Translations under genes and position numbers: made by a program | Part shown: one piece after another, positions 14,010 to 64,000 of the stretch | Layout of the letters: each line of letters begins with the position of its first letter | Numbering within the stretch: the first letter of the stretch is position 1 | The notes under the pieces: generated by a model | What the model saw: the letters and a program-made list of their open reading frames with translations, nothing else | Databases searched by the model: none | What the model was told of the DNA's origin: nothing | Assembly (NCBI GenBank): GCA_964035545.1 | Contig: OZ037770.1 | Location: 8,190,973-8,254,972, forward strand | DNA: 64,000 nucleotides | Source: Bugula neritina | Lineage: Eukaryota > Animalia > Bryozoa | Direction: 5' to 3'

Positions 14010-14079
<70 letters not shown>

Positions 14080-14114
14080 ATATATATAATATATATAATA
14101 TATATGTATATATA
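14010..14114. repeat. (TA)n microsatellite at the truncation point of the BEL element
   Basis: Direct. Confidence 0.95.
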
Positions 14115-18408: not shown

Positions 18409-18412
18409 TTAC

Positions 18413-36500: not shown

Positions 36501-39500
36501 TGCAATAACTTATGGTTTTGGTTTCATTAGATGCAACTGTTCCCAAATATTGAGTGAAATATCTACTGGAATAATAGAGAGAGACGCAATAAGAAAGCAG
36601 TTTATATGTAGTCTGCAGTGTTTATATACAGTAAAATAATAATTAGTATCATTGGCAAGTCGCATGCAAAGCTTACTTAGGATCACTTCTGATTAGCTCA
36701 AGTTTATAGCATTAGTTTGAGAACTAAACTAATAGACAGGAGAATATACAAACTTTCATTCACTAAACCCCTGACAGATAATACAAACTCCTTCCTTCTT
36801 ATTAACATCTGGGGAAAGTGTAGACAATAAATAATCTTACCTACAGCTGGGATACAGCTTAACCTGAATCCACTGACAACATGTGTACCATCATATGTCC
36901 ATTCTAGATTGATGTTTGTACCTGAGGGGTTTGCTCTGGTTGGAACTACATCTGCAGGAACTATTAGAACAGGGAAAATAAAAATATATTCTAAATTTAT
37001 GATAGATATTTTTCTCTTATAAATGCTTAAATGGAACATTACAATGTACTATTTGGTAATATAAAAAGCTCAATATTTACATATCCTTTTATATAGTATA
37101 AGTATAACTATAATTTGTGATAAATAAAACAGAAAGAGGCATTTACCCATAGTTAGCTCAGCACTGTTCTCTGGTGTGGAAGGTACATTATTACTGATTA
37201 CAGTTACAGTAAATATGTACATTTCTCCAGGAGTCAAGTTATTTATAGTAACAGAACTACCACTTCCGCGAGGTACATCTTCCACAGAAGGAGAAGGAAG
37301 GGAACATGGAGAGTTACATTTAACTTCTACTCTTACAGAATCCCACACAGTGTTAGGATTACTCCATGTTATAATAGCAGTGTTTGTACTATCAGGTGGG
37401 GATAACTCTGCTGTTACATTAGTCACAGGGGAAGGAGCTACAAAATGAAAAAACTCCTAACATGAACATTAGAGTCAAAAGCTATATTTGCAATAAAATA
37501 TAATATTCAGTTGTAATATTATCTTATAGAGCCAAACAAAATGCTGTGTATTACACACAGAAAGTTACCTAATTTAACTGTGTCAAACTCCACCCAACCA
37601 CTCTGTACAGAGACAGAAGTAGTGTTCACATAAGCTTGTATAGAGACAGTATAGTCCTGTCCTGGAGTAGCACCTTGCAGAGTGTAAGTTCTCACTGTGT
37701 TATCTGGAATATCTAGAGGGGAGCTCCTATCACCACACATCCCTGTGTAATATGAAAATAGAGTTAAAAATGTAATAAATAGCTAAATAGACACGTACGG
37801 CCTTCAATGAAGAGAAACATGCATAGAAGATTAGGAGTTATATTATCTGGCAACAGAAGTTGAATTTCTATATAATATACAAAGATAAATCCTAGATTAA
37901 AACTAAAATATTATCTACAATTGCACAAAACACTAAATGTGATGATTGAGTGCTGATTCTACATAAGAATTAACTAACCTAGGTTAAAGTGTTATTAGCA
38001 CAAGCAGGTAGAGTAATATAATAATAAACTAGTGAGGTCATATCCTGTATATATGAACACTACCCTAGACACTGATCATTGGTCATAACATTCACTCGGT
38101 TTAAATACACATCAAGAAATTATTTTCAATGCTATTTATATGTTTAAGTCAATATTCAGGACTCGCATTGTTTATATTATTGCAGAAGATAAACTAGGCA
38201 CCCTTTCCCTTTTTTATTTATCATATGCTATACATGCGATTTTATAAATAATCACATTTTACTATTTTGCCAACTTTTGAAAAGATGGATTACTTTTTAA
38301 GTTTCAGTTTGGTTGGGACTCAACTTGAACAATAAAATTCCCTAGATTTAAATAGGAAAAACTAAATCTAGAAGAATCACTTTTGATAGCTTCAAGCACA
38401 TTCTCATATAAACTTTTAACTTTTTAACCACTTGCTATAAATATAATATTAGTTGTCAGTTCAGTATTGAGTAATGAATGTGGGTGTTTTAAAATATGTG
38501 GGTATTGAGATTACAAACAAATTCTTATTTTATTAGACTATATCGCTATTTTATTTTATTTAATTATAAAAATATATATACTTTTTATTTAAAATTCTCT
38601 CTGCTACTTACACTTTAATTAAGAATATTTCGCCAAGTAGAGAGACTGACACTAAGAACTCAATAAACCCACTACAAAAGTGAGTGATTTAACAAAGAGG
38701 CAGAAGCAGAGTTATCTTCCCTACACAAGCATATCTCAAGTTTTACAACTATGCCAACTGAATACTTTACTTATCAGAGAACCAATATTACTGCATTTCC
38801 ATTGCTTCAATTGGATCCATACGAAAGCTAGCATAGATGGAGTTGTGGTTGAGTTTTGCAATAACCTATGATTTTCGTTTTATTAGATGCAACTTTTCCC
38901 AAATATTGAGTGAAAAATCTATTGGAATAATAGAGAGAGACGCAATAGGAAAGCAGTTTATATGTAGTCTGCAGTGTTTATATACAGTAAAATAATAATA
39001 ATTAGTATCATTGGCAAATTGTATGCAAAGCTTACTTGAGGTCACTTCCGATTAGCCCAAGTTTATAGCATTAGTTTGAGTACTAAACTAATGGACAGGA
39101 GAATATACAAATTTTCATTTACTAAACCACTGAGAGATAATATAAACCCCATCCTAGTTAATAACGTCTGATGAAAGTGTAGACAATAAATAATCTTACC
39201 TACAGCTGGGATACAGCTCAACCTGAATCCACTGACAACATGTGTATCATTATATGTCCATTCTAGATTGATGTTTGTACCTGAGGGGTTTGCTCTAATT
39301 GGAACTACATCTGATGGAACTATTAGAGCAGGGAAAATAAAAACATATTATAAATTTATAAGATATATTTTTCTCTTATAAATCCTTAAATGGAACATTA
39401 CAATGTACTATTTGGTAGTATAAAAAGCTCAATATTTATATATCCCTTTATATAGTATTAGTATAACTATAATTTGTGATAAATAAAACAGAAAAAGGCA

Positions 39501-42500
39501 CATACCCATAGTTAGCTCAGTACTATTCTCTGGTGTGGAAGGTACATTATTACTGATTACAGTTACAGTAAATATGTATGTTTCTCCAGGAGTCAAGTTA
39601 TTTATAGTAACAGAACTACCACTTCCATGAGGTACATCTTCCACAGAAGGAGGGGAACATGGAGAGTTACATTTAACTTCTACTCTTACAGAATCCCACA
39701 CAGTATTAGGATTCCTCCATGTTATAATAGCAGTGTTTGTACTACCAGGTGGGGATAACTCTGCTGTTATATTAGTCACAGGGGAAGGAGCTACAGAGGA
39801 AATGGATAACACACCCTAACACATAGGAATACAAACACCACAGAAGAGAGTCAGCAGGTGCACACCAGTTAGAAAATCATTATATGATTATAAAGAAGCA
39901 TGTAATAATGTTTTGGGTGCCTCACAATTACAAAGAAAGAAACTGATAATATATGACTTTGAACTGTTTAGGTGAAGTTATCTTCTTTATTTGCTACATA
40001 CAACATTTAATGTAACAACACGACTATCACTTGTTATTAAGTTAAAGCCAGATAGGGTGGTGGTAAAGATTAGATAAATAAAAGTGACTTAGCTTTATGT
40101 AGCTGACATATGGTCGGATGAAGAAATATTCCACAAGAGGAGATAATTTCAGTTTTCCGACTCATATTAGCAACAGTTATAAAAATTATTATTAAATTTT
40201 ACACCACAACATAAAGCAATGTGCAACTGTAAATACCAGAGAAGTGTGAATTAAACAAACCACAATCAAGGCAGGAATTGATGCAATGTCTAAGAAAGTC
40301 AACAGATGTGTTTAAACAAACTTTAATTGCTTTAGTAAAACTAATTGATATAGGTAATATATTGCATGTCATTTGAAAAAAATCTCCAACCTAATATGTT
40401 GCTGCCGAATAAGCTAGGAACTCTCCGTATGAAGCATGTGTTACATTGATAATAATACATACACAGTTATGTTGGTATCATGTAACAAACCTGCATTGAA
40501 TGTCACATTATTACTTTCCACACCATCATCTCCTAAGGTAGAGTTCATATAGTTGAATGCCAGCACCCTGACAGTGTACTCAGCTCCGGGTGTGGGCAGG
40601 GAGATAGTTTGAGGAGAAGTCTGAGTTCTTGTATCAAGACTGTCTTTAAACATAGCTGAGGTTCCATCGCTATACTGAACCTGGAAGAAGGGAGGGAGTC
40701 ATATATTCTGATATAAAACGCATTAGGAGATCACTGTGCAGTTTGAAAACCAAAGATATTTTCAGCTGGTTATGCTATAATAATTAAACTTTCCATCCAT
40801 CAAGATAAATATCTTAGAAGAGAAGCATGTGTTAGACATAATCTCTGTATACATGGCCATACGATGTAGACATGGAGTTGTGTTACTCACCATGTAGTAA
40901 ACATCTGCTTCTGTAGTCCAAGATACAGTGATGGAGTCTGTTTGTGGGTTTGAGACACTTACATCAGTTGCAGCATCTACAAACAGAAATACTTTACTAT
41001 AAAGCTACAACTTTGCTAACCAATATGTTGGTGTGTTATGTACTTGTAACAGTATGAGTACATGTGTACTTGTAACAGTATGAGTTCATGCATACTTGTA
41101 ACAGTATGAGTACATGAGTATATACTGTAGGCTATTGTACTATACACACAACATACCATACTACACTATACAATACAGTATATGCGATACTATACTTTAC
41201 TGTACTACACTGCACTGTGCTATACAATAAAGTTATGGCCTTGAAACTTGTAAGTGTGGACTTGCTTTCATATAGATATAATACTATCCCTAACTGCATT
41301 ATACTTTATCACAATGTATTATACCACTTTATTGCAATATATTCTATTTTATTCTATTCTATTACACTATATATACTATGCCTAACTGCACTATACTCTA
41401 TCATAATATGTTACATGTATGCCATATCACAATATATTATACTAACTTGGCATCAAAAATACAGGTTACACTTATTTACATTGGAACACTCACTGGGTGG
41501 TGCCAAGGTAGTAGTGGTGGTGGTAGTGCTGGTTGACTGTGCGGATGATGAATAATTCAGAGTTACACACAGAACAATCTGTAAATATAACGCTCAACAT
41601 CTTTATATATTCATACACTATATTTTACTACATCTAAAAAAAGAAAACTAAAAAGAAGCATGTTAAGATAACTCTGAATAACATTCTATAACTCCTTTCA
41701 TCAAATAGCACTTTACAAAAGATATCAAAGTCTTAAACACTAGTAAAATAAGTGATAGTTATATCCACATAATTGTATATGTCGGATATGTGTATAGGAA
41801 ATGCAGAAAATTCAAACACTGAATTCAAATAGCTTTTTTAGAGATGATAGTGTTAAGATTTTCAGATTTAGGGTTGATGTGCCACCAAGAGAGTCTATTT
41901 ATCACTCGAGAAACTGCACCGAGTTAAGTCGAGTAGATATCGTTATATTTTAATACAAGAATACATAATAAAATCTAATGTACAACAGTAATGATACGCA
42001 CGTCTATTTAATTTACAGCACTATCCTCAACTGAGCTAGTAGCGCGAAGCTGCTACTATTATTCATAAAACAGCCTAGCTAATTGGCTAATACATTGTTC
42101 CGGGTCAATACGCAACCTTGCGTATTGTGTTGCTGGTAGCTCCACGAGCCACCACACTGCCCCCTCCAGCAGAAAGCCCTCTTTCTGATAAAAATAAAAT
42201 TCACATAAAAAAACGTATACTTTGTTGTGGGGGGGTAAGAGAACAGTATGAAAGTATATAAAAAAAAACAACAACTGATAAAATATACAGGTATATATAA
42301 CGTGCACAATATGTAATAAGTAAGAGAAGGTCCTATCTACATGTAGAGTACGTGCCACCATAACGGTAGGGAATGCCACAGAGAGGTAGGGAAAGAGTAG
42401 TATGGAGTTGGAGATAGACTCAAGTTAACTGCGAGCCGCACGCTTCATGCGTTTAATAGACTCCTGTAAATATTTGAGTTCACTGGATGCAGCCTGCACC

Positions 42501-45500
42501 CGTGGGGCCAGTCTGTACACTTCTTGCTCCAAGTCGTGTGCCCTAGCTTTTACTTCACGTAGGTTGCGGGCCCAGGGGGACGAGCGAGAGGAAGTCGGCT
42601 GTCTGTGTCTTTTCCGCTCGGAGGATGGAAGGGGAGGAGGGAGTGTATACGCATTTGTGTCTACCCTCTGTAGTACGACACGAGGAAAGGTATGCGGTAT
42701 GCGTAGAGGACTGTGAGGTGGAGAGTTAGTAGACTGTGTAGGTTTATCTGCGGCTCCAGAGATGATGGGTCGCGGGGAAGGGAAGCCTTGCTCCAGGCGA
42801 GATAGCCGAGCTGGGTCAGTGATGAGTGGTTTGATGGCGTTGAGAAATGCAGGATAGGATGATTCGTCTACTTCATAGACATGTCCTTGATAACACTGCA
42901 TAGTACGTTGGTGACGCAGTAGGTAATCACGATTGTAGCTATATTCTCCGCAAGGGCAGAAAGTGGTGATGTAATGTTGCGGCAAGTGTACTTTCAGTCT
43001 GCGGTGGGTTGTAAATCGCTGCTGGCAGAGGTTGCATTCGCGATTACTCTCACCTCCTTGATGAGTCCTAATCTCTCTTTCTGTGGCAGGGGTAATCCAG
43101 TTGGAGGTTGCTTCCAACTGGGGTGGCAGTTGCCTGGTTGTAGAAGTTGTTGGGGCCGGCTCTGGGCCCCACGCCATCTCTAGAGAAGGCATGCCCGGAG
43201 AGACGGGAGCGAGTGTGTCTACAAAAGTAGAATTATTGTTAGATCGCGGTGGATCTTTACAACATAATTCTAGTGACTGTCGACCGTTGCTAGCCTGAGA
43301 GTCACAGCTTTTGAAATGCACTCGAGGAACCGATGAATCATGTGTGGACTGACCAAGAACAGTGTCTAGCTCCAGGTCTAACAGACTGTCGGCCATTACA
43401 GTGTCTTCATCATCATTCACATGAAACGTGGTTCCCAGTAATTCTGATTCAATCTGCTGAGTTAGTTCAGAATTTACTGGCATCGAGCCCGTTTCCATGA
43501 ATAGGAATACAAGACTTATACTGGCTTACCTGGGAACTCGGTATTAATGTCCATACTCAACGTTCTTGGTAAGATTGGAGCTGGTTGTGAGATACGTCTG
43601 CCTTTGGCGATGTCAGCATAAGAAAAGGCTGAGCATCGTTTCTGAGGCACGAGGTCGGAACTATTTGCTTTACGCGCATTAATTCCTCCCACTATTCCGC
43701 CCTCGCAAAAGTTGATATTTGCGTGGGGTTCACAACTCCAACATTTTATCGTACGGTCTTCCCCTAGACTTTCATGTGCGCCGCTTCTAATGCAGTCACA
43801 TACGAAGTCTTTTAAATATGGTGGGGGTTTCCTCGTACGCTGTCCCCTTTCTAGGGGGGGTGACACGCTTGCCGGTTCGTTAGTAGGGGCCTCTAATGGC
43901 GTCTCTACTTCACCGTTAGCGGTCACCTCTTCTTGTTCTCCGGATGGAGCCCCTCCCTCCATGGGGGTTTGCACTTCCGGAACCGCCTCGGTTTCTGGAA
44001 GTGATGGAATTAGACTTGGCGGTGGCAGACACGCTTCTGTTGACAAAAGCTGCCGCTCCTCTCTCACCAAGTTTTCTTCCCGCGGTATGACCACTTCGTA
44101 TTCAGGTCCATGCCGCCGTCGCCCGCGCGTTGTTGTCTGCCTCCTGGGCCCTAACAACAGGGGGGCTTCTTCCACTCCGTCGGGGCTAGCCCAATACGGT
44201 TTCAAGCGAGACTCATTCTGGATAGACACCTGTCCTGAGCGCTCGATCTTGTACGTATGATTGGGCATAGCCTCGACGACCACGTAGGGGCCTACGAACT
44301 TAGGCTTCAGTTTATCAGCCTGTCCGCGACGCCTACGGTAATTGACCATCCACACCTTATCTCCCGTTTGATAGAGAGGTGGTTCATCGGAATCTTCGTG
44401 CCGCACCTTCCACTGCTGTTGGCGCAGTATATCGTGTGCGGTCTTCATCCGTTCCACTAGTTCACTGGCATACTCGTGAACCGAGTTGTCTTGCTCTGGA
44501 ACGTGATAGGTGAGATGGTCAGGGACACGAGTCTCTCTCCCGAGCATCAAGAGGTTTGGGGTCTCACCAGTACTGGTGTGTGGGGTGCTACGGTATGCAC
44601 GCATGACCTGCGGCAACACCGTATCCCATTCCTCTTGACCTCGTCCAAGGAGGAGACTCCGGAGTGCATCACCTAGCATCCGGTTGTTGCGCTCCACCAC
44701 CCCGTTACCTTGAGGGTGGTAGGGGGTGGTCCTGCTCTGATTTACTCCCCAGAGGTGACAAAGGTCGCTCATCAGTTGGGACTGAAATTGAGCGCCTTGA
44801 TCAGAGTGTATCTGTTCGGGAAGCCCAAAATAACAGAATACATGTTGGTCTAGTGCCCTGGCCACTGTTGGGGCTGACGCATCTGGGATAGCCAGAGCAT
44901 CCGCCCACCTAGTAAAGTGGTCGGTTAGTACTAGGATCCAATTATTGCCTCTGGGGGTCAGGGGCATGGGTCCGACCAGGTCTACAGCGACTACTTGCCA
45001 GGGCCTACCAGCATATAGCCTCCGCCGTCCTGCTTCACCAGGGGGGCGGCTATGCTTACTGGCCTGGCAGATCTCACACTGTTTAACTCTGAGCCGGACG
45101 TCACGCTCCATTTGTGGCCAGTACCACCGGAGTCGTAATTTGGATATCACTCTCTTGACCCCTGCGTGGGCCTGTTTGTGAGTATCCCAAATCAACTCAC
45201 GGCGGATGGCCGTGGGGCAGACTACCCTCTTCCTTTCCGGGTGTCTGCCGCTGGCAGCTAGGGAGTTGGTGAGTAACCCATCCTGCCCGATCCGCAGCGA
45301 GTCCCAACGCTGACAGTATAGCCGGAACTCGGCGCATCCCTGTCGTATGCGTTCTTCGCTGGGTCGTCGCCCTTCCTTTTTGGCCCGGTATATGTCTGCC
45401 ACGACTCCAGGCAGCTCTTCTTGGAGCTTCTTCAGCTCTCGAACATTACCGGCCAGTACAGGGTTGGCGCGGAGGTTTTGTACATCCTCCGGGGACTCAT

Positions 45501-48500
45501 CAACTCCTTGCCTGAGTTGACCCTGGTCCCAGTCAAACGGTGCTCCGTGCTGAGCCAGCGTCTCCAACTCACATCGCGGGGGACCTCCATCCCTCCGCTC
45601 GATGTTGAGACACTGTTTGCAACCTCCGTCAGGTCGGCGACTCGACCCATCCGCATTGCTGTGTCTCTTGCCCGGTCGATGTTCGATCCGGTATGAGAAT
45701 TCAGCTAGGATTTCGAGCCACCGGACGACCTGACTAGAGGGCTCTGCTCTCTTGCACAACCAGATCAGCGAGGCATGATCCGTACGCAGCCGGAACTTCC
45801 TGTCGTATAGGTATGGTCTGAAGTGCTTCACTGACTTGATTACTGCCAGCAGCTCCTTGCGGGTAGTGCAGTAATTTCGTTCAGCGGGTGAGAGAGACTT
45901 GCTGTAGTAGGCTACTACTACCTCTCGGCCTTCCTGCACTTGTGACAGCACAGCGCCAACATTTTGGTCACTGGCGTCCGTGTCGAGGATGTACTCCAGA
46001 GTGGGGTCTGGGTAGGCCAAGATGGGCGCCGTTAGTAGGCAGCCCTTGAGGCGGTCGAACGCTCCTTGTTCGACTGGGGTCCACTGCCACGTCACTCCCT
46101 TTGCGGTGAGCCGGTTTAACGGCTGGGCTATGCCCGCAAAGTCCGGTATGTATTGCCTGTAATACCCTACCAGCCCCAAGAAAGCCCGGAGTCCGGTCAA
46201 GTCTTGGGGGGGTGACCCAGTCTTCTACCGCCCGTACCTTTTCGGGATCCGTTGCCACGCCGTTTCGACCGACAACGTGCCCCAGGTACTTGACCTCCGG
46301 CTGCAATAGAGCGCACTTGGAAGGTTTGAGCTTAAGACCGGCACTTCGGAGTCTCTCGAAAACCTCCTGCAGACGACTGACATGTGTCTCGAAGTCTGGA
46401 GAGATTACGATGACATCATCGAGGTAGACCAGCAGTGTCTTCCAATGGAGTCCGCTAAGGACTTGTTCCATCAGCCTATGGAAGGTGGCTGGGGCGGAGG
46501 TTAACCCGAAGGGTAGCACCTTCCACTTCCACAAACCGTCCCGTGTGATAAACGCCGCTTTCTCTTGGGCGTCGGGACTCAGAGGAACCTGCCAATAGCC
46601 GCTTAGCAAGTCTAACGTACTGAAGTACTTGCTGCCGGCTATGGCGTCCAATGACTCGTCAATACGAGGTAGATGGTAAGCGTCCTGTATGGTTACGCTA
46701 TTGAGTTTGCGGTAATCCACACAGAACCGCCAACTGCCGTCTTTCTTCCGGACCAGTACGACTGGCGAGCTCCACGCACTATGGGCGGGCTCTATCAGTC
46801 CCCGGTCCAGAAGATCCCGTACTTGTCGGCTAACTTCCTTCTCTTTTTCCGGCCCCAGCCTGCGTGTGGGCTGCCGGACAGGGACTGTCCCTGCAGTCAG
46901 CGGTATTTCGTGTCTGACAACTCCAGTCAGCCCCACGTCATTATCTCCGCTACTGAACACATCACCGTAGTCGCGTAGCAGCTTCGCCATGACTTGGCGT
47001 TCCTTGTTGCTCGCGCAGCCGCCACTGGCTGTTTCGTATAACTCCCGGAGATGTGTTGGGACTGCCCCTCGTCCCTGAATAGGGTGTCGAGGGGGTGCCT
47101 CCGTCGCGTCACCCAGCGACGGGCCCACGTCCTCTTCCTGGACGGAATGGAATCGGCCCAGCATTGACCCAGCTGGGAGCTCAATGGGCTCGGTAAAGGG
47201 GTTGACACACTGCACTAAGACCTCCCCTCGCTCAGTTAGTCGGTTTAAACTACTGGCGAGTTGGATCCTTTCGTGCGCGCCTTCAACGACCCCGAGCCTG
47301 GCTATCCGGTTGCTGTTCACTCGGCAGTGGATAGTAGCTCTGGAGCGTCCGGGCACGGTGCAGTTTCGAACTACCTGAACACCGCCCACCAGAGGACGTC
47401 CAAACTTATCCACACAGGCGAGTTCTCGCCCGCCCATCAGCACCACCGACTTACTAAAATCTATTCGGCACTGGTGTTGCTTCAAGAAGGGCATTCCGAG
47501 GATAGCATCTTCCTCCAGTTGACCTATGATAAAGGTCTCCTGTACAGCCTGGTCTCGGACACGCCCAGGGAGCTCGATAATACCATAAAAGGGAATACAT
47601 GACCCGTCTGCCAGGGTGCCATGTTCCCCAGTATACGGTCGTACTCTATCCCTGTCCCGGCGGGGCAGTGCCTCAAAGACTCTACGACTGAGAAGGTTGG
47701 TAGTACAACCGGAGTCGAGCAGGAAAGTGACGGCGTTGCCGGCCACCTTTCCGGGTAGGAAATAGCTCTCTCCATGTGGTTGTACTTTCACCCCCCCCCG
47801 CATGTGCTGTCCTGGATTGACAGGACGGCGGGGGTTTCACCCGTGGTTTACGGGGCTTCCGGCGGCGAGGTTGGTGCCGGCGGGGTTTGGGGCTCTCCAC
47901 TGGGCCTTCTGGCTCCATTTCAGTGGCGGGCTCCTCTTCCCGAGGTAAGCGGTGAAACCGGTTAGCGAGTGGCAGGGAGAAGGTACTTGGCCGTTGTGCG
48001 GGCCTACTAGTCCTGCGTGGTACCTGCCACTCGGGTGGAGTGTTCCGTCGTGTCCGTACGGACAGACGACGGCGTGTTCCACCATACTTCTTCAGTTGCG
48101 GCCCGCGGGGAGGGAGAGTGTCCGCGGGCCGTGACAGTTTAACGCCCCCTGGTATTGGGGTCGTCCTTTCTGTCCCTGGTCCTGGTCAGCGCTACTCCAG
48201 CCCTGCCCCACAGGTGTTGGGGGCACCCGCAGGGCCTGACCGGGGCCAGCACCGGCCAGAATGGTTACCAGTTGTCCCAGCATCTCTACCATACGGTCCA
48301 CTTCGGCTTCCAGCGGGAGGGCTTCGGGACCTGTAGTAGCCCTGGCAGCGCTGGCTCCAACTACTGGTGGGTTCCGTTGTGCTCTATGCATTTGGGTAGC
48401 CAACAGGTAAGCTTCTCCAGCCTTCAGGGCATCCTCTATTCTGGTTATCCCCTTAGCTCGTAGTTGATGGTGTAGGCCCAGGTCGTTTAGTGACTGGACA

Positions 48501-50306
48501 AAGGCGTCATAGGTGTAACGCTCTTGGTGCTGTGCTGGCAGATCGCTATATGCAATCTGCGCCAGCCTCTTCACTGTCGCGGCATGTTCTTGCAGCGAGG
48601 TTTGCGGGGTGCGGCACAATCTCTCTAGCTTGGTCCTAGCGTCTATTGCGGAGATGCCAAAACGGGCCCGCAGCGCAGCCAGTATCCCGTTTACGTCCGT
48701 TCCCACTCCGTACGGCTTGGCTTGTTTCGTCACCGCTCTCCGCAATTGGATAAGGGCCACTCTATGCGGCCATTGAGCAACCTCCATTACCTCTCTAAAT
48801 TCTTGTATAAATTGTTCGACATCTTCCGACCCAGTAAAGGTGGGAGCTTTCAAGCAATGTCTATAAGCTTCTTCTCCCTCACGATTCACAGGATTAACAG
48901 CATTTCTACGCTCACCTTCTACTGGGGGTGGTTGCATTCTAGCATTTTCAGTCTCCATCTTTGATGTACACAAATCCCACCGCTGCCACCACTGTTAAGA
49001 TTTTCAGATTTAGGGTTGATGTGCCACCAAGAGAGTCTATTTATCACTAGAGAAACTGCACCGAGTTAAGTCGAGTAGATATCGTTATATTTTAAGACAA
49101 GAATACATAATAAAATCTAATGTACAACAGTAATGATACGCACGTCTATTTAATTTACAGCACTATCCTCAACTGAGCTAGTAGCGCGAAGCTGCTACTA
49201 GTACTCATAAAACAGCCTAGCTAATTGGCTAATACATTGTTCCGGGTCAATGTGCAACCTTGCGTATTGTGTTGCTGGTAGCTCCACGAGCCACCACAAT
49301 AGCCACATTTAACTCAGAAATGTCCTAATGCAGACAAACTTCAAATAATAACACACCATGGAAGCTATACTTAACAATTTTGTGCAATACCCGGCACTGG
49401 TGTGATCTATAGAGAATACTCATATTAGTTACTAACATGCAAAATTACATGCAAGTTTCAAGTTTTATTAAAACTAACTTTGCTAAAAAAACAACCCAGT
49501 ATTACCATACCACAAGTGTGATGAGAGACTTTGATATCTCCATGTTAAACAGTCCTGTGTTATTCATGAGCTAGTACTTCACCATAGTCAGTCACTCTAA
49601 AGAATAGAAATGTCAACACTTAGTTTTAGACACCCTGGCTATACACCTGCTGGGCAGCAGACAGACACATGGGTTCCAGTACACCTGTCTTAGCAAGGCA
49701 CACAACCTAGTGCTCCAAGTCATTGATCCTTTTAATGTAAGAGTTGTATAGGTATAAAAAAACCTTCCATTGTGAGCAGTTCTAAAGTAGTTGAAAAGGT
49801 TTTAAACAAGGCTGTATTGTTGAGATAAAAGATATTCATAGCTCTACATTTGTGTTTCTACTATTCAATGACTATCAATGTAATATATTGCAGTTTAAAC
49901 ATACAGCATCTTCCCACTCAGCCATGACAGGCCTACATGTTCAGTTTATCAGAGTACAGTCTGTGAAATATAAAACAAACTAGCTAATTTTGACAAAATC
50001 ACAAAACTTCCAAATTCAATTCCGAGAGAACCATCGAAGCTGCACATCTGGTAAAATTATACAGTAGCTTCAGTATCTATTATTCATGAGTGAAGTTTGG
50101 TGGGGGGTTGACATAACATCACCTTAAAACTACTACTTCTCCTTATAACTAAATGAGGAAATACTGAATGGGTTGACAACACCACACATACATCTGGTGA
50201 CTATATCTGACAATAAACTCTAGAATACAGGACAGTATTACCATACCACAAGTGTGATGAGAGACTTTGATAGCTTCATGTTCAACAGCAGTCCTGTGTT
50301 ATTCAT
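18413..50306 (-). CDS. FN3-repeat type I membrane protein with receptor-type tyrosine phosphatase R3 (PTPRB/PTPRJ/PTP10D-like) ectodomain; whole gene span
   Basis: More than 30 phase-compatible GT-AG exons: signal peptide, Thr-rich linker, about 16-17 FN3 modules, PTP_tm-like juxtamembrane domain, TM helix. No catalytic exon found. Confidence 0.85.
18891..20062 (-). CDS. Three exons of the R3-RPTP membrane-proximal domain (20062-19877, 19532-19397, 18995-18891)
   Basis: FSLNSGNIIKYQILV, SWAEAKKNDFKEPYAIS, NRKKR, INVGTDTSC...LCNGPLKSNQQY; intron phases 1/2/2 are consistent. Confidence 0.85.
19015..19142. repeat. 18-bp tandem repeat, about 7 copies, intronic
   Basis: Unit cagtaactcactaactac. 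Confidence 0.85.
20330..20760 (-). CDS. Last FN3 module (exons 20760-20579, 20483-20330)
   Basis: ISWEEPNPPNGVITGYRIQW...LSHNKKYTVSIQART. Confidence 0.9.
21041..21872 (-). CDS. FN3 module (exons 21872-21715, 21164-21041)
   Basis: PNAPDTV...SIYINW...SYRISV; YNITGLEPYTEYTVSVQAKTSAGYG. Confidence 0.9.
21905..22228. repeat. 16-bp tandem repeat, about 20 copies, intronic
   Basis: Unit tcaactagtgtatgtg. Confidence 0.93.
22471..25862 (-). CDS. Four FN3 modules of the downstream 5-kb unit (exons B 25862-25743, C 25388-25215, D 25087-24969, E 24788-24629, F 23596-23462, G 23313-23152, H 22940-22765, I 22684-22471)
   Basis: All splice sites canonical; exon lengths match the upstream unit; motifs SVTLTWNKP..NGVVVAY and LSPFTNYTFVVWAFN. 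Confidence 0.88.
26438..26620 (-). pseudogene. Type A FN3 pseudo-exon lacking both splice sites
   Basis: Relative to 31626-31916, the acceptor plus 5' part and the donor are deleted. Confidence 0.85.
26695..26904 (-). mobile_element. tRNA-derived SINE
   Basis: Minus head GGAGCAGCCGTTGTCTAGGAGTTAGAGCG...GAGTTTGAACCCC (A/B-box like); related copies at 30910-31100 and 33370-34218. Confidence 0.65.
27441..31916 (-). CDS. Upstream 5-kb unit, five FN3 modules (exons A 31916-31626, B 30841-30722, C 30379-30206, D 30082-29964, E 29784-29625, F 28564-28430, G 28281-28120, H 27910-27735 with dead acceptor, I 27654-27441)
   Basis: Exon-for-exon paralogous to 22471-26620 at an offset of about 4970-5000 bp. 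Confidence 0.85.
30910..31100 (-). mobile_element. tRNA-derived SINE, absent from the paralogous intron near 25915
   Basis: GGAGCAGCCGAGGTCTAGGGGTTAGAGCG...GGGTTCTAGTC head; the flanks join directly in the paralog. Confidence 0.7.
32541..32710 (-). pseudogene. 3' half of a type A exon (no acceptor)
   Basis: Homology ends at tggagagtta; donor retained. Confidence 0.8.
32947..33237 (-). pseudogene. Type A FN3 exon with in-frame stop
   Basis: Splice sites intact but LTPG codon GGA changed to TGA at 33026-33028; NPNP micro-duplication. Confidence 0.85.
33425..34066. mobile_element. Harbinger-type MITE (642 bp) inserted in a SINE
   Basis: TIR GTGTA(C/G)GGCCACACGACGC; flanks tat/taa; empty TAA site in the related SINE copy near 26750. 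Confidence 0.85.
34793..39790 (-). CDS. Five FN3 modules from 2.36-kb A-B-C tandem units (exons A 39790-39506, B 39319-39200, C 37742-37569, A 37437-37147, B 36960-36841, C 35382-35209, A 35077-34793)
   Basis: Canonical phase-1 splice sites, open frames; exon offset 2359-2360 bp and introns alignable. Confidence 0.88.
40491..40976 (-). CDS. First FN3 module (exons 40976-40891, 40680-40491)
   Basis: TDVSVSNPQTDSITVSW...PTPGAEYTVRVLAFN. Confidence 0.85.
41038..41120. repeat. 26-bp tandem repeat, 3 copies
   Basis: Unit tgtacttgtaacagtatgagtacatg. Confidence 0.8.
41494..41578 (-). CDS. Exon: end of signal peptide plus Thr-rich linker
   Basis: tttacag|IVLCVTLNYSSSAQSTSTTTTTTTLAPP|gtgagt; phase 0 in, phase 1 out. 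Confidence 0.8.
41851..42156 (-). repeat. 3' LTR, preceded on minus strand by PPT GGAGGGGGCAG
   Basis: Direct repeat of 48993-49298. Confidence 0.96.
42425..43498 (-). CDS. Gypsy ORF3: 357-aa C2H2 zinc-finger / coiled-coil protein in env position
   Basis: Intact ATG-to-stop ORF between pol and PPT; CNLCQQRFTTHRRLKVHLPQH, CPCGEYSYNRDYLLRHQRTMQC, RKRHR, C-terminal heptads; no signal peptide or TM. Confidence 0.85.
   Translation of the reverse strand: METGSMPVNSELTQQIESELLGTTFHVNDDEDTVMADSLLDLELDTVLGQSTHDSSVPRVHFKSCDSQASNGRQSLELCCKDPPRSNNNSTFVDTLAPVSPGMPSLEMAWGPEPAPTTSTTRQLPPQLEATSNWITPATEREIRTHQGGESNRECNLCQQRFTTHRRLKVHLPQHYITTFCPCGEYSYNRDYLLRHQRTMQCYQGHVYEVDESSYPAFLNAIKPLITDPARLSRLEQGFPSPRPIISGAADKPTQSTNSPPHSPLRIPHTFPRVVLQRVDTNAYTLPPPLPSSERKRHRQPTSSRSSPWARNLREVKARAHDLEQEVYRLAPRVQAASSELKYLQESIKRMKRAARS
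43516..48143 (-). CDS. pol: Gypsy pol (protease LLDSG, RT YLDD, RNase H, integrase HHCC/DDE/GPY) with two homopolymer frameshifts near 47795 and 46210
   Basis: ORFs 45968-47803 and 43516-46200 plus the -1-frame N-terminal segment. Confidence 0.93.
48092..48958 (-). CDS. gag: Gypsy gag
   Basis: ORF directly after the PBS; KAPTFTGSEDVEQFIQEF capsid-like start; conserved in the second copy. Confidence 0.9.
   Translation of the reverse strand: METENARMQPPPVEGERRNAVNPVNREGEEAYRHCLKAPTFTGSEDVEQFIQEFREVMEVAQWPHRVALIQLRRAVTKQAKPYGVGTDVNGILAALRARFGISAIDARTKLERLCRTPQTSLQEHAATVKRLAQIAYSDLPAQHQERYTYDAFVQSLNDLGLHHQLRAKGITRIEDALKAGEAYLLATQMHRAQRNPPVVGASAARATTGPEALPLEAEVDRMVEMLGQLVTILAGAGPGQALRVPPTPVGQGWSSADQDQGQKGRPQYQGALNCHGPRTLSLPAGRN
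48099..48143 (-). promoter_or_regulatory. Putative -1 ribosomal frameshift signal (G_UUA_AAC, 5-nt spacer, 10-bp GC stem)
   Basis: GTTAAAC tgtca CGGCCCGCGG-13nt-CCGCGGGCCG near the gag end; the -1 frame is open into pol. Confidence 0.75.
48974..48991 (-). promoter_or_regulatory. Primer binding site, tRNA-Leu
   Basis: TGGTGGCAGCGGTGGGAT is complementary to the 3' end of metazoan tRNA-Leu(AAG/UAG), ATCCCACCGCTGCCA-CCA. Confidence 0.88.
48993..49298 (-). repeat. 5' LTR
   Basis: Direct repeat of 41851-42156, adjacent to PBS. Confidence 0.96.
49511..49567 (-). CDS. Candidate first coding exon, copy a (MNNTGLFNMEISKSLITLV)
   Basis: ctttag acceptor at 49597, GTATGG phase-0 donor; joins IVLCVTLNYSSSA to complete a signal peptide. 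Confidence 0.6.
49628..49730 (-). mobile_element. Short SINE-like remnant
   Basis: gttgtgtgccttgctaagaca...gtactggaaccc resembles common tRNA-SINE core sequence. Confidence 0.35.
50247..50306 (-). CDS. Candidate first coding exon, copy b (MNNTGLLLNMKLSKSLITLV)
   Basis: Duplicate of 49500-49620 with the same splice sites. Confidence 0.6.
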
Positions 50307-50846: not shown

Positions 50847-52279
50847 TGGAATGTGAAACTGAATGTTGAAAGTAAAAGAGAACAACTCCTCATTGTAGAA
50901 AACATTTTGAAACTTTTGTTCTATTCTTGTACTTAGTGATCTCTTAATGTAGTAATCAATAGCTTATAATATGTTAAATGTTTGCACTGTTTACTGCCCA
51001 CTTCAGAAGAGACGTCAAAATCATTACATATATGTGTATTTACAGCTTCTCTGTAGTTCTTGAATTGGATTTATTGTCTCTTGGTTTTCTGTAGACGCCA
51101 TGGGAAAATTGCAGAAATTAATAAATAAATTACTTAAACTTCAGTCACATAAACCCTGGTTTCAGCAATTGTACTATAAACTTATCCTAAAACACTGAAC
51201 GACTTAAATGATATTTAAAAATAATTCATTAAAATCTGATCCAAATGAAAAAAAACATGAAATTGTGTTTTCTAAGAAACTACTCAATTGGCACCAAGAG
51301 CAAGTTAAAATATTTTAACTGTCATTAGCTTAAGCATGAATTCGTCAGTAGTCAGTCAAATCAGTAGATGAACCTCACAATAACCCCAAGTAAGGCCATG
51401 GCTTGTCTAGTTGTAATTATGTCACAAACCAAGCTCTTCGGCCATGTAGTAAGTATCGTTTATTTTTTATTTGATTCAATCAATTTTGACGGAATCCATA
51501 AATGAGTTTCAACAGAATTATATTTGCTGCTTTGTCACCTTAAAAATATTCAATTCCATGCCTAGCAGTCGTAGCTTACAAAGTACATGTTATATAAAAT
51601 ATATTGTTTGAAATCCTTAGAGAAGTTCTATATAGATGTTGGTAAAGACTCAATTCTAACAATCAAAAGTTCTAGAACACTTATAGAAAAGCAGCAATAG
51701 TTTGAGGAGTTGATTTACATACAGGTCTCTCATCTTTATTTAAGATAAAACCACAGTTTAAGTTCTAGAACAGTGATGAAGGCTAACAGAAAATTTCATG
51801 TTTACATTCAACAGAAATTAGATAAATAAAATATACACACATTCTATATAAAAAAATTTAAATTTCAGTATAACATATTAGTTATAGTAATATAACATGC
51901 AATAATAAAATGAACAGCAAAATAATAGATAGTAACATAGCTTACAGCATTTTGATATACTTATTGTAGCATTCAGTTATATAGAACAGAGTAATATAAA
52001 CTATAGCAGTGAGCATTTACAGAATTGTGAATGTTGAGGATAACATCATAAATAGCAAAGAACTTAAGATTTAAATGACCGAAAATGGGCTAAAGTTCAA
52101 TACACAGGTTTTAGTACCAATATTTTGTATTTTAAACTCTTTTGGCTGAATACTAACGGAAAAAGAATCTCTTCAACCCTGCTGCCCTCTTGTTGAAGTT
52201 TTTACAGCTTCCTGGGCTATTTGGCATGTTGATAATTATAGTTGCTAAATACTTACTTAAAAATGGGTCGAGTTATGCA

Positions 52280-53575: not shown

Positions 53576-53630
53576 CCTAAAATGCCAGCCATTTTAATGT
53601 GTCTGTGCGGAAGTTTTTTTATCTAACAGT

Positions 53631-59144: not shown

Positions 59145-59449
59145 TTAGTGTGTCTAGGTGGTAAGCTAAAAACAACTATGATACATGTATATATTGTGGA
59201 TCATTTTACAAGAGTAATTTGCCATTTGCGTCATTTTCTAATTTAGGAAATCATAGATATATTTAGTCAGAAATAATTTGTTCTATAAATAAGCAAGTAC
59301 CATTACACGTTTGCTGTATTAGATTAGAATAGATCACCGAAACCACATAAATATGCAATATTAGTTCATACAAACTGTACATATCTAAGCACACTACACT
59401 TAATAAACCTTGTCTCAATGATGTCCCGTCGCAGTTTGCGTACTACTAA

Positions 59450-59792
59450 GCCTAGGGCCACACTGTGCGTATTTTCGCATGCAAAAATTAAAATCACGAG
59501 TAGCAAAGGTGTCCACTGTAGCGTCAGTGATGCGTGATAAATAAAGCGTTCATTTTTAAATCGCACTCGCTTTCAATAAAACGCAATTTACTGGAATATA
59601 GCACTAAATAAAGAAATTGGGCTCGCTGAATAGCTACCAGCCAATTAGGTGACGACGACAGAGACGATTCGCACTTGCGTTGAAAATGCAGAGCGACAAG
59701 TGCGAAGGTTTTCTCAACGCGCACAGTGGACACCTTTGCTACTTGTGATTTCAATTTTCGCATGCGAAAATACGCACCGTGTGGCTCTAGGC
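59450..59792. mobile_element. Second copy (inverted) of the 343-bp MITE at 18066
   Basis: Same TIRs, TAA target duplication. Confidence 0.92.
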
Positions 59793-59835
59793 TAAGTTGG
59801 GTGTTATTTCTCGTTAGTAATTACTGCATATACAC

Positions 59836-60209: not shown

Positions 60210-60547
60210 TGTGGTGGCTCGTGGAGCTACCAGCAACACAGTACGCAAGGTTGCGTATTGACTCGGAACAATGTATTAGCCAATTAGCTAGGCTGCTTTA
60301 TGAGAGTAGTAGCAGCTTCGCGCTACTAGCTCAGTTGAGGATAGTGCTGTAAATTAAATAGACGTGCGTATCATTACTGTTGTACATTAGATTTTATTAT
60401 GTATTCTTGTATTAAAATATAACGATATCTACTCGACTTAACTCGGTGAAGTTTCTCTAGTGATAAATAGACTCTCTTGGTGACACATCAACCCTAAATC
60501 TGAAAAACATAACAGTGGTGGCAGCGGTGGGATAGTGTATATCAAAG

Positions 60548-61414
60548 ATGGAGACTGAAAATGCTAGAATGCAACCACCCCCAGTAGAAGGTGAGCGTAG
60601 AAATGCTGTTAATCCTGTGAATCGTGAAGGAGAAGAAGCTTATAGACATTGCTTGAAGGCTCCCACCTTTACTGGGTCGGAAGATGTCGAACAATTTATA
60701 CAAGAATTTAGAGAGGTAATGGAAGTTGCTCAATGGCCGCATAGAGTGGCCCTTATTCAATTGCGGAGAGCGGTGGCGGAGCAAGCCAAGCCGTACGGAG
60801 TGGGAACGGACGTAGACGGGATACTGGCTGCGCTGCGGGCCCGTTTTGGCACCTCCGTAATAGACGCTAGGACCAAACTAGAGAGATTGTGCCGCACCCC
60901 GCGGACCTCGCTGCAAGAACATGCCACGACGGTGAAGAAGCTGGCGCAGATTGCATATAGCGATCTGCCAGCACAACACCAAGAGCGTTACACCTATGAC
61001 GCCTTTGTCCAGTCACTAAACGACCTGGGCCTAAACCATCACCTACGAGCTAAAGGGATAACCAGAATAGAGGATGCCCTGAAGGCTGGAGAAGCTTACC
61101 TGTTGGCTACCCAAATGCATCGAGCACAAAGGAACCCACCAGTAGTTGGAGTCAGCGCTGCCAGGGCTACGACAGGCTCCGAAGCCCTCCCGCTGGAAGC
61201 CGAAGTGAACCGTATGGTAGAGATGCTGGGACAACTGGTAACCATTCTGGCCGGTGCTGGCCCCGGTCAGGCCCTGCGGGTGCCCCCAACACCTGTGGGG
61301 CAGGGCTGGAGTAGCGCTGATCAGGACCAGGGACAGAAAGGACGATCCCAATACCAGGGGGCGTTAAACTGTCACGGCCCGCGGACACTCTCCCTCTCCG
61401 CGGGATGCAACTAA
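60548..61414 (+). CDS. gag: Gypsy gag (copy 2)
   Basis: 288-aa ORF nearly identical to 48092-48958. Confidence 0.9.
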   Translation: METENARMQPPPVEGERRNAVNPVNREGEEAYRHCLKAPTFTGSEDVEQFIQEFREVMEVAQWPHRVALIQLRRAVAEQAKPYGVGTDVDGILAALRARFGTSVIDARTKLERLCRTPRTSLQEHATTVKKLAQIAYSDLPAQHQERYTYDAFVQSLNDLGLNHHLRAKGITRIEDALKAGEAYLLATQMHRAQRNPPVVGVSAARATTGSEALPLEAEVNRMVEMLGQLVTILAGAGPGQALRVPPTPVGQGWSSADQDQGQKGRSQYQGALNCHGPRTLSLSAGCN

Positions 61415-64000
61415 AGGAGTATGGTGGAACACGCCGTCGTCTGTCCGTACGGACACGGCGGAACATTCCACCCGAGTGGCAGGTACCACGCAGGACTAGT
61501 AGGCCCGCACAACAGCCCAGTACCTTCTCCCTGCCGCTCGCTAACCGGTTTCACCGGTTACCTCGGGAAGAGGAGCCCGCCACTGAAATGGAGCCAGAAG
61601 GCCCAGTGGAGAGCCCCAAACCCCGCCGGCACCAACCTCGCCGCCGGAAGCCCCGTAAATCACGGGTGAAACCCCCGCCGTCCTGTCAATCCAGGACAGC
61701 ACATGCGGGGGGGGGGTGAAAGTACAACCACATGGAGAGAGCTATTTCCTACCCGGAAAGGTGGCTGGCAACGCCGTCACTTTCCTGCTCGACTCCGGTT
61801 GTACTACCAACCTTCTCAGTCGTAGAGTCTTTGAGGCACTGCCCCGCCGGGACAGGGATAGAGTACGACCGTATACTGGAGAACATGGCACCCTGCAGAC
61901 GGGTCATGTATCCCCTTTTATGGTATTATCGAGCTCCCTGGGCGTGTCCGAAATCAGGCTGTACAGGAGACCTTTATCATAGGTCAACTGGAGGAAGATG
62001 CTATCCTCGGAATGCCCTTCTTGAAGCAACACCAGTGCCGAATAGATTTCAGTAAGTCGGTGGTGCTGATGGACGGGCGAGAACTTGCCTGTGTGGATAA
62101 GTTTGGGCGTCCTCTGGTGGGCGGTGTTCAGGTAGTTCGAAACTGCACCGTACCCGGACGCTCCAGAGCTACTATCCACTGCCGAGTGAACAGCAACCGG
62201 ATAGCCAGGCTCGGGGTCGTTGAAAGCGCGCACGAAAGGATCCAACTCGCCAGTAGTTTAAACCGACTAACTGAGCGAGGGGAGGTCTTAGTGCAGTGCG
62301 TCAACCCCTTTACCGAGCCCATTGAGCTCCCAGCTGGGTCAATGCTGGGCCGGTTCCACTCCAGCCAGGAAGAGGACGTGGGCCCGTCGCTGGGTGACGC
62401 GACGGAGGCACCCCCTCGACACCCTATTCAGGGGCGAGGGGCAGTCCCAACACATCTCCGGGAGTTATACGAAACAGCCAGTGGCGGCTGCGCGAGTAAC
62501 AGAGAACGCCAAGCTATGGCCAAGTTACTACGCGACTACGGTGATGTGTTCAGCAGCGGAGAGCATGACGTGGGACTGACTGGAATTGTCAGACACGAAA
62601 TACCGCTGACTGCAGGGACAGTCCCTGTCCAGCATCCCACGCGCAGGCTGGGGCCGGAGAAAGAGAAGGAGGTTAGCCGACAAGTACGGGATCTTCTGGA
62701 CCGGGGACTGATAGAGCCCGCCCATAGTGCGTGGAGCTCGTCAGTCGTACTGGTCCGGAAGAAAGACGGCAGTTGGCGGTTCTGTGTGGACTACCGCAAA
62801 CTCAATAGCGTAACCATACAGGACGCCTACCCTCTACCTCGTATTGACGAGTCATTGGACGCCCTAGCCGGCAGCAAGTACTTCAGTACATTAGACTTGC
62901 TAAGCGGCTATTGGCAGGTTCCTCTGAGTCCCGACGCCCAAGAGAAAGCGGCGTTTATCACACGGGACGGTTTGTGGAAGTGGAAGGTGCTGCCCTTCGG
63001 GTTAACATCCGCCCCAGCCACCTTCCAGAGGCTTATGGAACAAGTCCTTAGCGGACTCCATTGGAAGACACTGCTGGTTTACCTCGATGATGTCATCGTA
63101 ATCTCTCCAGACTTCGAGACACATGTCAGTCGTCTGCAGGAGGTTTTCGAGAGACTCCGAGTTGCCGGTCTTAAGCTCAAACCTTCCAAGTGCGCTCTAT
63201 TGCAGCCGGAGGTCAAGTACCTGGGGCACGTTGTCGGTCGAAACGGCGTGGCAACGGATCCCGAAAAGGTGCGGGCAGTAGAAGACTGGGTCACCCCCCA
63301 AGACCTGACCGGACTCCGGGCTTTCTTGGGGCTGGTAGGGTATTACAGGCAATACATACCAGACTTTGCGGGCATAGCCCAGCCGTTAAACCGGCTCACC
63401 GCAAAGGGAGTGCCGTGGCAGTGGACTCCAGTCGAACAAGAAGCGTTCGACCGCCTCAAGGGCTGCCTACTAACGGCGCCCATCTTGGCCTACCCAGACC
63501 CCACTCTGGAATACATCCTAGACACGGACGCCAGTGACCAGAATGTTGGCGCTGTGCTGTCACAAGTGCAGGAAGGCCGAGAGGTAGTAGTAGCCTACTA
63601 CAGCAAGTCTCTCTCTCCCGCTGAACGAAATTACTGCACTACCCGCAAGGAGCTGCTGGCAGTAATCAAGTATGTGAAGCACTTCAGACCATACCTATAT
63701 GGCAGGAAATTCCGGCTGCGTACGGATCATGCCTCGCTGATCTGGTTGTGCAGGAGAGCGGAGCCCTCTAGTCAGGTCGCCCGGTGGCTCGAAATTCTAG
63801 CTGAATTCTCATACCGGATCGAACATCGACCGGGCAAGAGACACAGCAATGCGGATGGGTTGAGTCGCCGACCTGACGGAGGTTGCAAACAGTGTCTCAA
63901 CATCGAGAGGAGGGATGGAGGTCCCCCCCGATGCGAGTTGGAGACGCTGGCTCATCACGGAGCACCGTTTGACTGGGATCAAGGTCAACTCAGGCAAAGA
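61363..64000 (+). CDS. pol: Gypsy pol (copy 2), partial, with frameshifts near 61710 and 61895
   Basis: LLDSG, WRFCVDYRKLN, YLDD, RNase H DTDAS motifs. Confidence 0.9.

Follow-up and report, generated by a model that had tools for sequence, protein, structure and literature searches.

Structure of the host element and location of ORF3

The window, that is, the whole 64,000-nucleotide stretch of Bugula neritina DNA analysed here, contains a young Gypsy retrotransposon that carries an additional gene, ORF3, between pol and the 3' LTR (Table 1). Its two LTRs of 306 nt each are 98.0% identical, and the TG...CA ends, target duplication, primer-binding site, polypurine tract, and a pol with protease, reverse transcriptase, RNase H, and integrase in that order are those of Ty3/Gypsy elements. 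The primer-binding site is presumably of the tRNA-Leu type. The pol of this copy is frameshifted and lies in separate overlapping open frames. No chromo family, which a chromovirus would show at the C-terminus of its integrase, was matched by the integrase ORF in Pfam at E ≤ 1, and no env family is among the Pfam matches of the element. Its integrase follows the reverse transcriptase, unlike Gmr1 as described in PMC8220671.

Table 1. Coordinates of the ORF3 element and its features in the window
Feature	Position	Strand	Remarks
3' LTR of ORF3 element	41851..42156	-	306 nt
Inverted repeat, perfect 10-bp, 2-nt spacer	42106..42127	.	near LTR start; candidate dimer site or RNA hairpin
Polypurine tract	42157..42169	-
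ORF3 (P0001)	42425..43498	-	357 aa, uninterrupted
C-terminal heptad helix, residues 308-356	42431..42577	-	predicted coiled coil
Basic patch RKRHR, residues 295-299	42602..42616	-	candidate nuclear localisation signal
PRVVLQR, residues 272-278	42665..42685	-	PxVxL, HP1 chromoshadow-type, in disordered linker
Two-zinc domain, residues 124-248	42755..43129	-	family-defining; predicted compact
Finger 2, C-x-C...H...C, residues 181-202	42893..42958	-
Finger 1, canonical C2H2, residues 155-175	42974..43036	-
Acidic N-terminus, residues 1-50	43349..43498	-	12 D/E, no K/R; includes MADSLLDLEL
Candidate splice acceptor CCAG	43477..43480	-	ORF3 codons 7/8, phase 1
pol	43516..47836	-	PR-RT-RNaseH-IN order (Pfam matches and coordinates)
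Donor-like CAG/GTAAGC	43524..43532	-	pol tail, phase 1
gag	48092..48958	-
Donor-like AAG/GTGAGC	48910..48918	-	gag codon 15, phase 1
Primer-binding site TGGTGGCAGCGGTGGGAT	48974..48991	-	same 18 letters present in L018
5' LTR of ORF3 element	48993..49298	-	306 nt; TG...CA ends
CTAT target duplication	49299-49302 and 41847-41850		flanks LTRs of ORF3 element
Second element copy	60210..64000	+	96.4% identical; window ends before its integrase and ORF3

An initial sequence-only reading had described ORF3 as an intact frame inside the LTRs, on the pol strand and 17 nt past the pol stop, and the coordinates (ATG at 43498, pol stop at 43518-43516) confirm this. The parts that it had named, an acidic N-terminus, a C2H2 finger, an atypical second finger, RKRHR, and a (predicted) C-terminal helix, were all located in ORF3. 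Finger 1 reads C155-x2-C158-x3-F162-x5-L168-x2-H171-x3-H175, and finger 2 reads C181-x-C183-x12-H196-x5-C202; both are present, but instead of standing free they are predicted to be packed into one domain of about 125 aa. Residues 1-50 are a candidate activation-like region by composition, to which an NES-like register fits as well. A bZIP was considered and rejected, because by eye the basic patch is out of register with the helix and the helix contains a conserved proline.

ORF3 is not an env protein. Because its highest 19-aa Kyte-Doolittle mean is only 0.58, it has neither a membrane span nor a signal-peptide core, and thus lacks the signal peptide and membrane anchor of errantivirus env. 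The proposed absence of a furin site needs correction, since one R-x-K-R word occurs (RMKR, residues 350-353), which is meaningless as a furin site in a protein without signal peptide.

Gene family, Gypsy linkage, and selection

ORF3 has 61 close relatives and belongs to a large family without a name in the libraries searched. No published account of it was found in the full-text literature, while Repbase, GyDB, subscription journals, or supplementary element tables may hold one. The gene is under purifying selection: 21 of the 29 listed differences common among copies are synonymous, compared with 31% expected (p 6.5e-6; part of the 29 come from one divergent contig and hence are not independent), pN/pS is about 0.17, no common difference creates a stop, and all four in the zinc domain are synonymous. 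The outcomes that would have spoken against the initial proposal were not encountered, as ORF3 is found in many copies and is not freely disrupted, pN/pS is not near 1, and the top matches are not a host gene captured once.

Linkage to Gypsy was supported by a distant relative, L018 (domain E 1e-31, 35% over the domain), which occupies the same slot in another, related Gypsy, about 25-30 nt before its polypurine tract and LTR; past this LTR lie the same primer-binding site, gag (39%), and protease (65%). L018 is the sole clear member among the 6 viral and 21 metagenome loci matching a degenerate finger pattern. L013, with an E of 4e-6 across 34 profile positions and without a neighbouring Gypsy gene, was set aside as chance together with the remaining 25 loci. 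Patterns of the close family gave 155 matches in metagenome contigs and one in viral contigs, none of which was confirmed.

The predicted two-zinc domain

Residues 124-248 are predicted as a single compact unit (pLDDT 95.5, pTM 0.86). Neither the whole ORF3 nor the domain had a Foldseek match at E ≤ 0.001 in the PDB or in viral models, which is no proof of a new fold, and the Atlas returned solely unnamed clusters and generic C2H2 clusters. With VIA, the domain gave a best Z of 3.5; the helix on its own reached about 5.8, against generic coiled coils. The finger pair overlays weakly on the DNA-bound C2H2 pair of Kaiso (Z 3.5, rmsd 2.7 Å, 57 residues), and the pairs of Kaiso, ZBTB7A, CTCF, and SALL4 have in common with ORF3 the finger 1 motif and a similar predicted pose (Z about 3-3.5, rmsd 2.3-2.9 Å, 50-57 residues). 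The best PDB sequence match is to the ZBTB7A fingers (E 7e-6), and of the 44 members fitting the pattern, 41, 39, and 38 carry Arg at helix positions +2, +3, and +5 of finger 1, respectively. Unlike tandem C2H2 pairs, ORF3 has a second finger of the CxC type, a five-residue linker (YITTF) instead of TGEKP, and extra helices that enclose the finger pair in one predicted compact domain without PDB match. Finger 1 fits the classical motif, whereas the ORF3 fingers score 15.7 bits against a Pfam cut-off of 25.2. Owing to this low score and the lack of a TGEKP linker, RNA or protein binding is possible too.

Short motifs, U3 palindrome, and splice-like sites

The conserved PxVxL motif, the acidic xLL N-terminus, the U3 palindrome in both lineages, and the in-phase splice-like sites are new here. 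According to PMC7465937, described chromoshadow ligands include PxVxL, LxVxL, and CxVxL. P272, V274, L276, and R278 of ORF3, unlike the x positions, do not vary among 17 close sequences, the motif is the best-conserved 9-mer of linker 249-309 (0.90 vs about 0.6), and [PL]xVxL is kept in 32 of the 35 close relatives (of 60) in which the segment was found. The close family therefore has a conserved ligand-type motif in a disordered region, as expected of an HP1 chromoshadow ligand. Family-wide, the enrichment of [PLC]xVxL is modest (11/34 vs 6.0 ± 2.2 expected, reached in 15/500 shuffles; 8/27 vs 4.9 and 40/500 shuffles at a stricter cut), and neither the Bugula protein P0208 nor a large subfamily of short forms (P0233, P0239) has the motif. 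Upstream of the domain, acidic [DE]xLL occurs in 15 of 32 de-replicated members compared with 6.3 ± 2.0 after shuffling (0/400), the pattern having been picked after looking at the sequences.

The perfect 10-bp inverted repeat near the LTR start was matched by 0/300 shuffles in the window and 3/300 in L018, with different sequences in the two. Of the three LTRs in the window, two have it in imperfect form, and it could alternatively act as an RNA hairpin. Among 110 acceptor pairs, codons 7/8 are the sole pair compatible in all 47 sequences; this test discriminates weakly, with eight others in the top ten at 0.89-0.97. RNA run X1 yielded low-depth contigs over parts of ORF3 outside the splice-like sites, and such contigs cannot reveal transcription, strand, or splicing. 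A programmed frameshift into ORF3 was rejected, as the short frame overlap holds no slippery word.

Comparison with known systems

According to PMC10309623, CERV of Cer1, a Ty3/Gypsy element of C. elegans, is translated from a spliced message whose first exons are common to gag, is needed for export, and combines a Cys finger and a leucine zipper with an NLS and a candidate NES. CERV, which is nuclear, and ORF3 are thus both accessory proteins of animal Gypsy elements with a zinc-binding part, a basic NLS (a candidate one in ORF3), and a leucine-zipper-like helix, and the in-phase sites of ORF3 would allow splicing from gag likewise. By description only, CERV differs in its C4-type loop, its G-protein-like domain, and its overlap with gag, whereas ORF3, which follows pol, has PxVxL and a domain made up of C2H2 and CxC-H-C fingers; homology to CERV was, as reported there, not found outside nematodes. 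Because nuclear Gypsy accessory proteins are known and ORF3 is no env, the likeness to a complex retrovirus drawn at the outset was overstated.

Rotifer LTR elements have been described with non-env ORF3s (GDSL esterase, DEDDy nuclease; PMC5408684), likewise captured genes at the env position of an invertebrate Gypsy; unlike ORF3, these are enzymes or membrane proteins, and the words 'zinc' and 'finger' are absent from the main text of that paper. Errantivirus env shares with ORF3 the position after pol and possibly a spliced message (PMC13524379), but ORF3 has no fusion-protein fold and neither a membrane span nor a signal peptide; in the bryozoan env elements described in the same source, the order is gag-env-pol. 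VANC of VANDAL DNA transposons is described as acting on its own family via short element motifs (PMC6719617), a mode that by analogy may apply to ORF3, although VANC belongs to plant DNA transposons and DNA methylation.

Proposed function of ORF3

We tentatively propose, with a probability of about 0.4, that ORF3 is an element-encoded nuclear regulator, which binds its own LTR and HP1 so that the element stays expressed. The ORF, its position, selection, family, and motif conservation are observed, and the compact fold and coiled coil are predicted. The predicted two-zinc domain would bind LTR DNA, with the U3 palindrome as the putative site; HP1 would be bound via the PxVxL motif, and coactivators would be recruited by the acidic N-terminus, whereby the element would likely be kept transcribed in silenced chromatin. 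ORF3 would be located in the nucleus, may pair via its C-terminal helix, and may be translated from a spliced message in which ORF3 is joined onto the first codons of gag. Since repression is the usual consequence of HP1 binding, activation by ORF3 is something that we infer. The nuclear regulator suggested at first is thus supported in part, as a non-env, selected, element-linked ORF with regulator anatomy and a putative regulatory role. It is doubtful that the following wider picture holds as a whole: a Gypsy lineage widespread in marine invertebrates whose HP1-docking, LTR-binding zinc activator is an animal anti-silencing protein with a new two-zinc fold, passing between integrase-fused and free-standing forms and domesticated in bryozoans.

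Possible, though on balance doubtful, is that ORF3 serves as an integration tether. As a C-terminal, detachable part of integrase, it would accompany the pre-integration complex and steer insertion by binding chromatin, via HP1 (PxVxL) or via the ET domain of BET proteins, the latter likewise through this basic-hydrophobic strand. In this it would correspond to the chromodomain of chromoviruses or to the MLV integrase tail, which tethers to BET according to PMC8149907. P0097 (E 1e-9), P0144 (7e-4), and P0202 (0.001) start, in pairwise comparison, with an integrase-tail-like stretch in frame with the domain, P0113 (0.13) and P0067 (0.32) do so weakly, and P0197 by motif pattern only; up to six such relatives suit a tether better than a regulator. 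The candidate acceptor lies 53 nt from the donor-like word just ahead of the pol stop and is, like it, in phase 1, and the integrase of the ORF3 element is without chromodomain match. However, ORF3 of the close family begins at its own conserved Met, no common indel occurs from the pol stop to ORF3 in 487 contigs, the overlap offers no slippery site, the acidic activation-like N-terminus would be superfluous, and the in-frame fusions may stem from decayed copies. A search for fusions at 694-2000 aa gave none among 2133 candidates; since P0197 (894 aa) and P0202 (710 aa), both known members, escaped it as well, this result is uninformative.

It is unlikely that ORF3 is an exporter resembling Rev or CERV, which, made from a spliced message, would bind unspliced genomic RNA (e.g., at the U3 hairpin) and license its export. 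The donor-like word in gag codon 15 and the candidate acceptor agree in phase, and M35-x3-L-x2-L-x-L fits an NES consensus register in 32 of 43 close relatives; but the register is broken in the other 11, the family shows no enrichment (11/32 vs 9.6), the finger pair resembles DNA-bound pairs, and PxVxL is left without explanation. Slightly less probable still is a self-repressor, whose DNA- and HP1-binding parts would bring heterochromatin to its own LTRs and limit copies or cell types. PxVxL ligands are mostly heterochromatin partners, and PMC6719617 deals with strategies by which transposons control themselves, whereas the conserved acidic xLL N-terminus suits activation and many family members are without PxVxL. 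We consider a captured host zinc-finger gene, carried as a passenger without role in the element, very improbable. Relatives are annotated as genes in Watersipora subatra (XP_067940963/4, two domain copies and isoforms) and B. neritina (KAF6037488, KAF6040922), but ORF3 copies are under purifying selection, the same slot is occupied in a distant Gypsy, and Gypsy-linked members fall on both sides of the midpoint of a quick, poorly resolved tree (7/81 branches at 95 or more).

Implications

Counter-silencing proteins encoded by elements are well documented in plants (VANC), and a 2019 review (PMC6719617) reports, in the available parts of its text, none against animal piRNA or KRAB-ZFP pathways. 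Since ORF3 comes with a docking motif of five residues, a candidate DNA site, and a small domain that is predicted well, the question of counter-silencing by a putative nuclear regulator of this kind becomes testable. Under the rival readings too, ORF3 defines an animal Gypsy protein family without a name in the libraries searched, and the env slot can house a chromatin factor.

Position of ORF3 and its surroundings

The Gypsy element that bears ORF3, the zinc-finger/coiled-coil gene in the env slot, is flanked by a duplicated CTAT target site and contains a polypurine tract together with a PBS of 18 nt. According to the Pfam search of the element, pol runs in the order PR-RT-RNaseH-IN without any chromodomain, and frameshifts interrupt it in this copy. 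ORF3 follows the pol stop at a distance of 17 nt. Every motif attributed to ORF3 by the sequence-only reading, such as the C2H2 finger, the atypical finger, the basic patch and the heptad helix, was recovered, and its view that ORF3 is not env holds, because no hydrophobic segment was found when the whole protein was scanned (maximum KD19 0.58).

Features of the window around the ORF3-bearing element
Feature	Position	Strand	Remarks
ORF3, 357 aa	42425-43498	minus	unbroken
LTRs of 306 nt	41851-42156 and 48993-49298	minus	6 differences between the pair; TG...CA ends
Second element copy	starts 60210	plus	96.4% identical; exits window ahead of integrase
Truncated older relative of the element	2011-3272	plus	66% identical across protease-RT; no ORF3 seen
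Broken unrelated Gypsy	54604-58206	minus	between both ORF3-element copies; RT and RNaseH matches; no ORF3 relative found
Fibronectin type III host gene (Pfam fn3)	about 22600-39800	minus	adjoins ORF3 element; exons duplicated in ~2.36 kb and 5 kb blocks, introns included
BEL/Pao element, 1128-aa ORF	14009-17395	minus	DUF1759, DUF1758, Peptidase_A17; interrupted by AT microsatellite
Tandem arrays, unit lengths 46 nt and 24 nt	28-1109 and 52148-53500
Long open frame of the 24-nt array	53035-53592	minus
MITE-like pair, ~350-nt element	18060-18414 and 59445-59798		~75-nt terminal inverted repeats

Copies and selection

An intact frame in a young copy proves little; therefore, other copies were examined. 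Contigs of sequencing run X2 span the entire element, with summed depths of 23,000-42,000 over ORF3, 35,000-40,000 over gag and 350-2,100 over the flanks; summed contig depth does not equal copy number and is read solely as presence, and ORF3 is present in many element copies. Among 487 X2 contigs and four contigs of a second run (X1), 29 ORF3 differences reach a share of at least 20% in either run, with no indel listed at that share and no stop codon created. Synonymous changes account for 21 of the 29, against an expectation of 31% once the observed share of transitions is allowed for (p 6.5e-6 in a binomial test, an optimistic value because several differences share one divergent contig), pN/pS is about 0.17, and all four zinc-domain differences are synonymous. 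The dN/dS-type comparison suggested earlier thus reveals purifying selection, and ORF3 is a real, selected gene. Its retention across copies was confirmed in part: it occurs in many of them with no listed indel, but isolated contigs of low depth leave out 42191-43767 and 42823-43164, and therefore ORF3-deleted copies exist.

The protein family and its linkage to Gypsy elements

Of 1745 candidates from a word-seeded search, 61 proved to be relatives, with identities of 35-73%; none carries a name, and their sources are all JGI, ENA or Logan assemblies. An exhaustive search widened this to 214 cluster representatives (E<=0.001), of which 69 pass 1e-10, with ordinary poly-C2H2 proteins in the tail; a profile search accepted 124 of 3600 and enlarged the set further. 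The family core (residues 124-248) opens with a Trp and a helix, continues through finger 1, a short linker and the CxC...H...C finger, and closes with YEVD, a pair of helices and PxxRP. A heptad helix ends most members. No Pfam family covers the core, on which zf-C2H2 scores 15.7-19 bits, under its cut-off of 25.2; the family is apparently undescribed.

Only three named clusters, all bryozoan, were met among 20 proteins looked up; named members are Watersipora subatra XP_067940963/4 (two domain copies, isoforms) and Bugula neritina KAF6037488 and KAF6040922. Host-like forms (P0204/P0063, P0211, P0138, P0088 and P0123), which show a doubled domain, isoforms or an additional N-terminal stretch in common and carry names in two bryozoans, are candidates for domesticated ORF3. 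A large short-form subfamily (P0104, P0218-P0314; about 245 aa) consists of the zinc domain and C-terminal helix only, without the acidic N-terminus and without PxVxL, the HP1 chromoshadow-type docking motif.

A degenerate finger pattern matched six viral and 21 metagenome loci, among which only the contig locus L018 clearly belongs to the family (E 1e-31). Its domain, 35% identical to that of the window's ORF3, lies inside a frame of 726 codons that is still open where the contig ends; after its stop come a polypurine tract, ~720 nt of LTR-like sequence starting TGTGTGGTGG, a PBS identical to the window's, gag (39%) and protease (65%). Either a tandem pair or a collapsed assembly would produce this order, ORF3-LTR-PBS-gag. 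A start like the integrase tail of the window's element, in frame with the domain, was found in P0097, P0144 and P0202, a weak likeness in P0113 and P0067, and one by motif only in P0197. In a quick, poorly resolved tree of 84 domains, which were retained from 244 domain copies by a limit of 65% identity, six Gypsy-linked members are spread over both halves about the midpoint. Gypsy linkage is thus shown at two loci, and six proteins suggest it.

Predicted structure and short motifs

AlphaFold2 orders about 121-248 and 306-357 of full ORF3 and leaves the remainder disordered; modelled alone with 50 aligned sequences (pLDDT 95.5, pTM 0.86), the zinc domain is predicted to be a single compact unit. 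Only the finger pair matches known folds, weakly, namely DNA-bound C2H2 pairs (Kaiso Z 3.5, rmsd 2.7 A, 57 residues). The helix of finger 1 has Arg at +2, +3 and +5 in 41, 39 and 38 of 44 members, a pattern that suits nucleic-acid binding and fits DNA and RNA alike.

The best-conserved 9-mer in the disordered linker is PRVVLQR. All of 17 close sequences share P272, V274, L276 and R278 but differ at the intervening residues, and [PL]xVxL is kept in 32/35 close relatives having the segment. According to the available text of PMC7465937, it fits the HP1 chromoshadow ligand pattern. Family-wide the signal is weaker: [PLC]xVxL occurs in 11/34 members vs 6.0 in local shuffles (15/500), or 8/27 at a stricter cut (40/500 shuffles); with a following Arg/Lys, a pattern picked after looking, it occurs in 7/34 vs 0.9 (0/500). 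Three control patterns were not enriched in the same test. In distant members the same strand reads PLRVVVTR or VRINLVRL, which is also reminiscent of the BET-binding tail of MLV integrase. BET tethering by that tail is described in the available part of PMC8149907. The word [YF]xIP[KR][RK], recurring in the linker of distant P0141, P0170, P0177, P0178, P0179 and P0135, is a candidate second short docking motif.

The ORF3 N-terminus is acidic. Upstream of the domain, [DE]xLL was found, post hoc, in 15/32 sequences vs 6.3 (0/400 shuffles), and an NES pattern was not enriched (11 vs 9.6). A perfect 10-bp inverted repeat lies near the start of the 3' LTR of the ORF3-bearing element (0/300 shuffles) and of the L018 LTR (3/300 shuffles); the two remaining LTRs in the window have it in imperfect form.

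Candidate splicing

With a strict donor pattern, only two donor-like words were found on the sense strand of the element, at gag codon 15 and immediately ahead of the pol stop. CCAG at ORF3 codons 7/8 is in phase 1, like both of them; residues compatible with a kept YAG there occur in 47/47 relatives, a test that discriminates weakly. If used, these candidate sites would allow a gag-leader-ORF3 message, like that of CERV, the accessory protein of the C. elegans element Cer1, or an integrase-ORF3 fusion.

Proposed function

We propose, with a probability of about 0.4, that the ORF3 protein acts in the nucleus, probably as a pair, to regulate its own element: it would bind the element's LTR, dock on HP1 and recruit coactivators. 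The same parts could instead serve an integration tether, a reading that we hold to be rather unlikely, or a CERV/Rev-like exporter, which seems improbable; a self-repressor built from them ranks just behind the exporter. A passenger host gene fits the selection data poorly and is very improbable.

Non-env third ORFs in rotifer Gypsy elements, a nuclear accessory protein in Cer1 and anti-silencing proteins of plant DNA transposons are already known from the available text of PMC5408684, PMC10309623 and PMC6719617, respectively. The portions available of PMC13524379, PMC8220671, PMC8556966, PMC2836005, PMC5029228 and PMC6431247 make no mention of an ORF of this type, and searches of the full-text literature, covering the main text of papers, found no description of ORF3. 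The ORF3 family itself is apparently undescribed, and the chromatin mechanism proposed for it would be testable.
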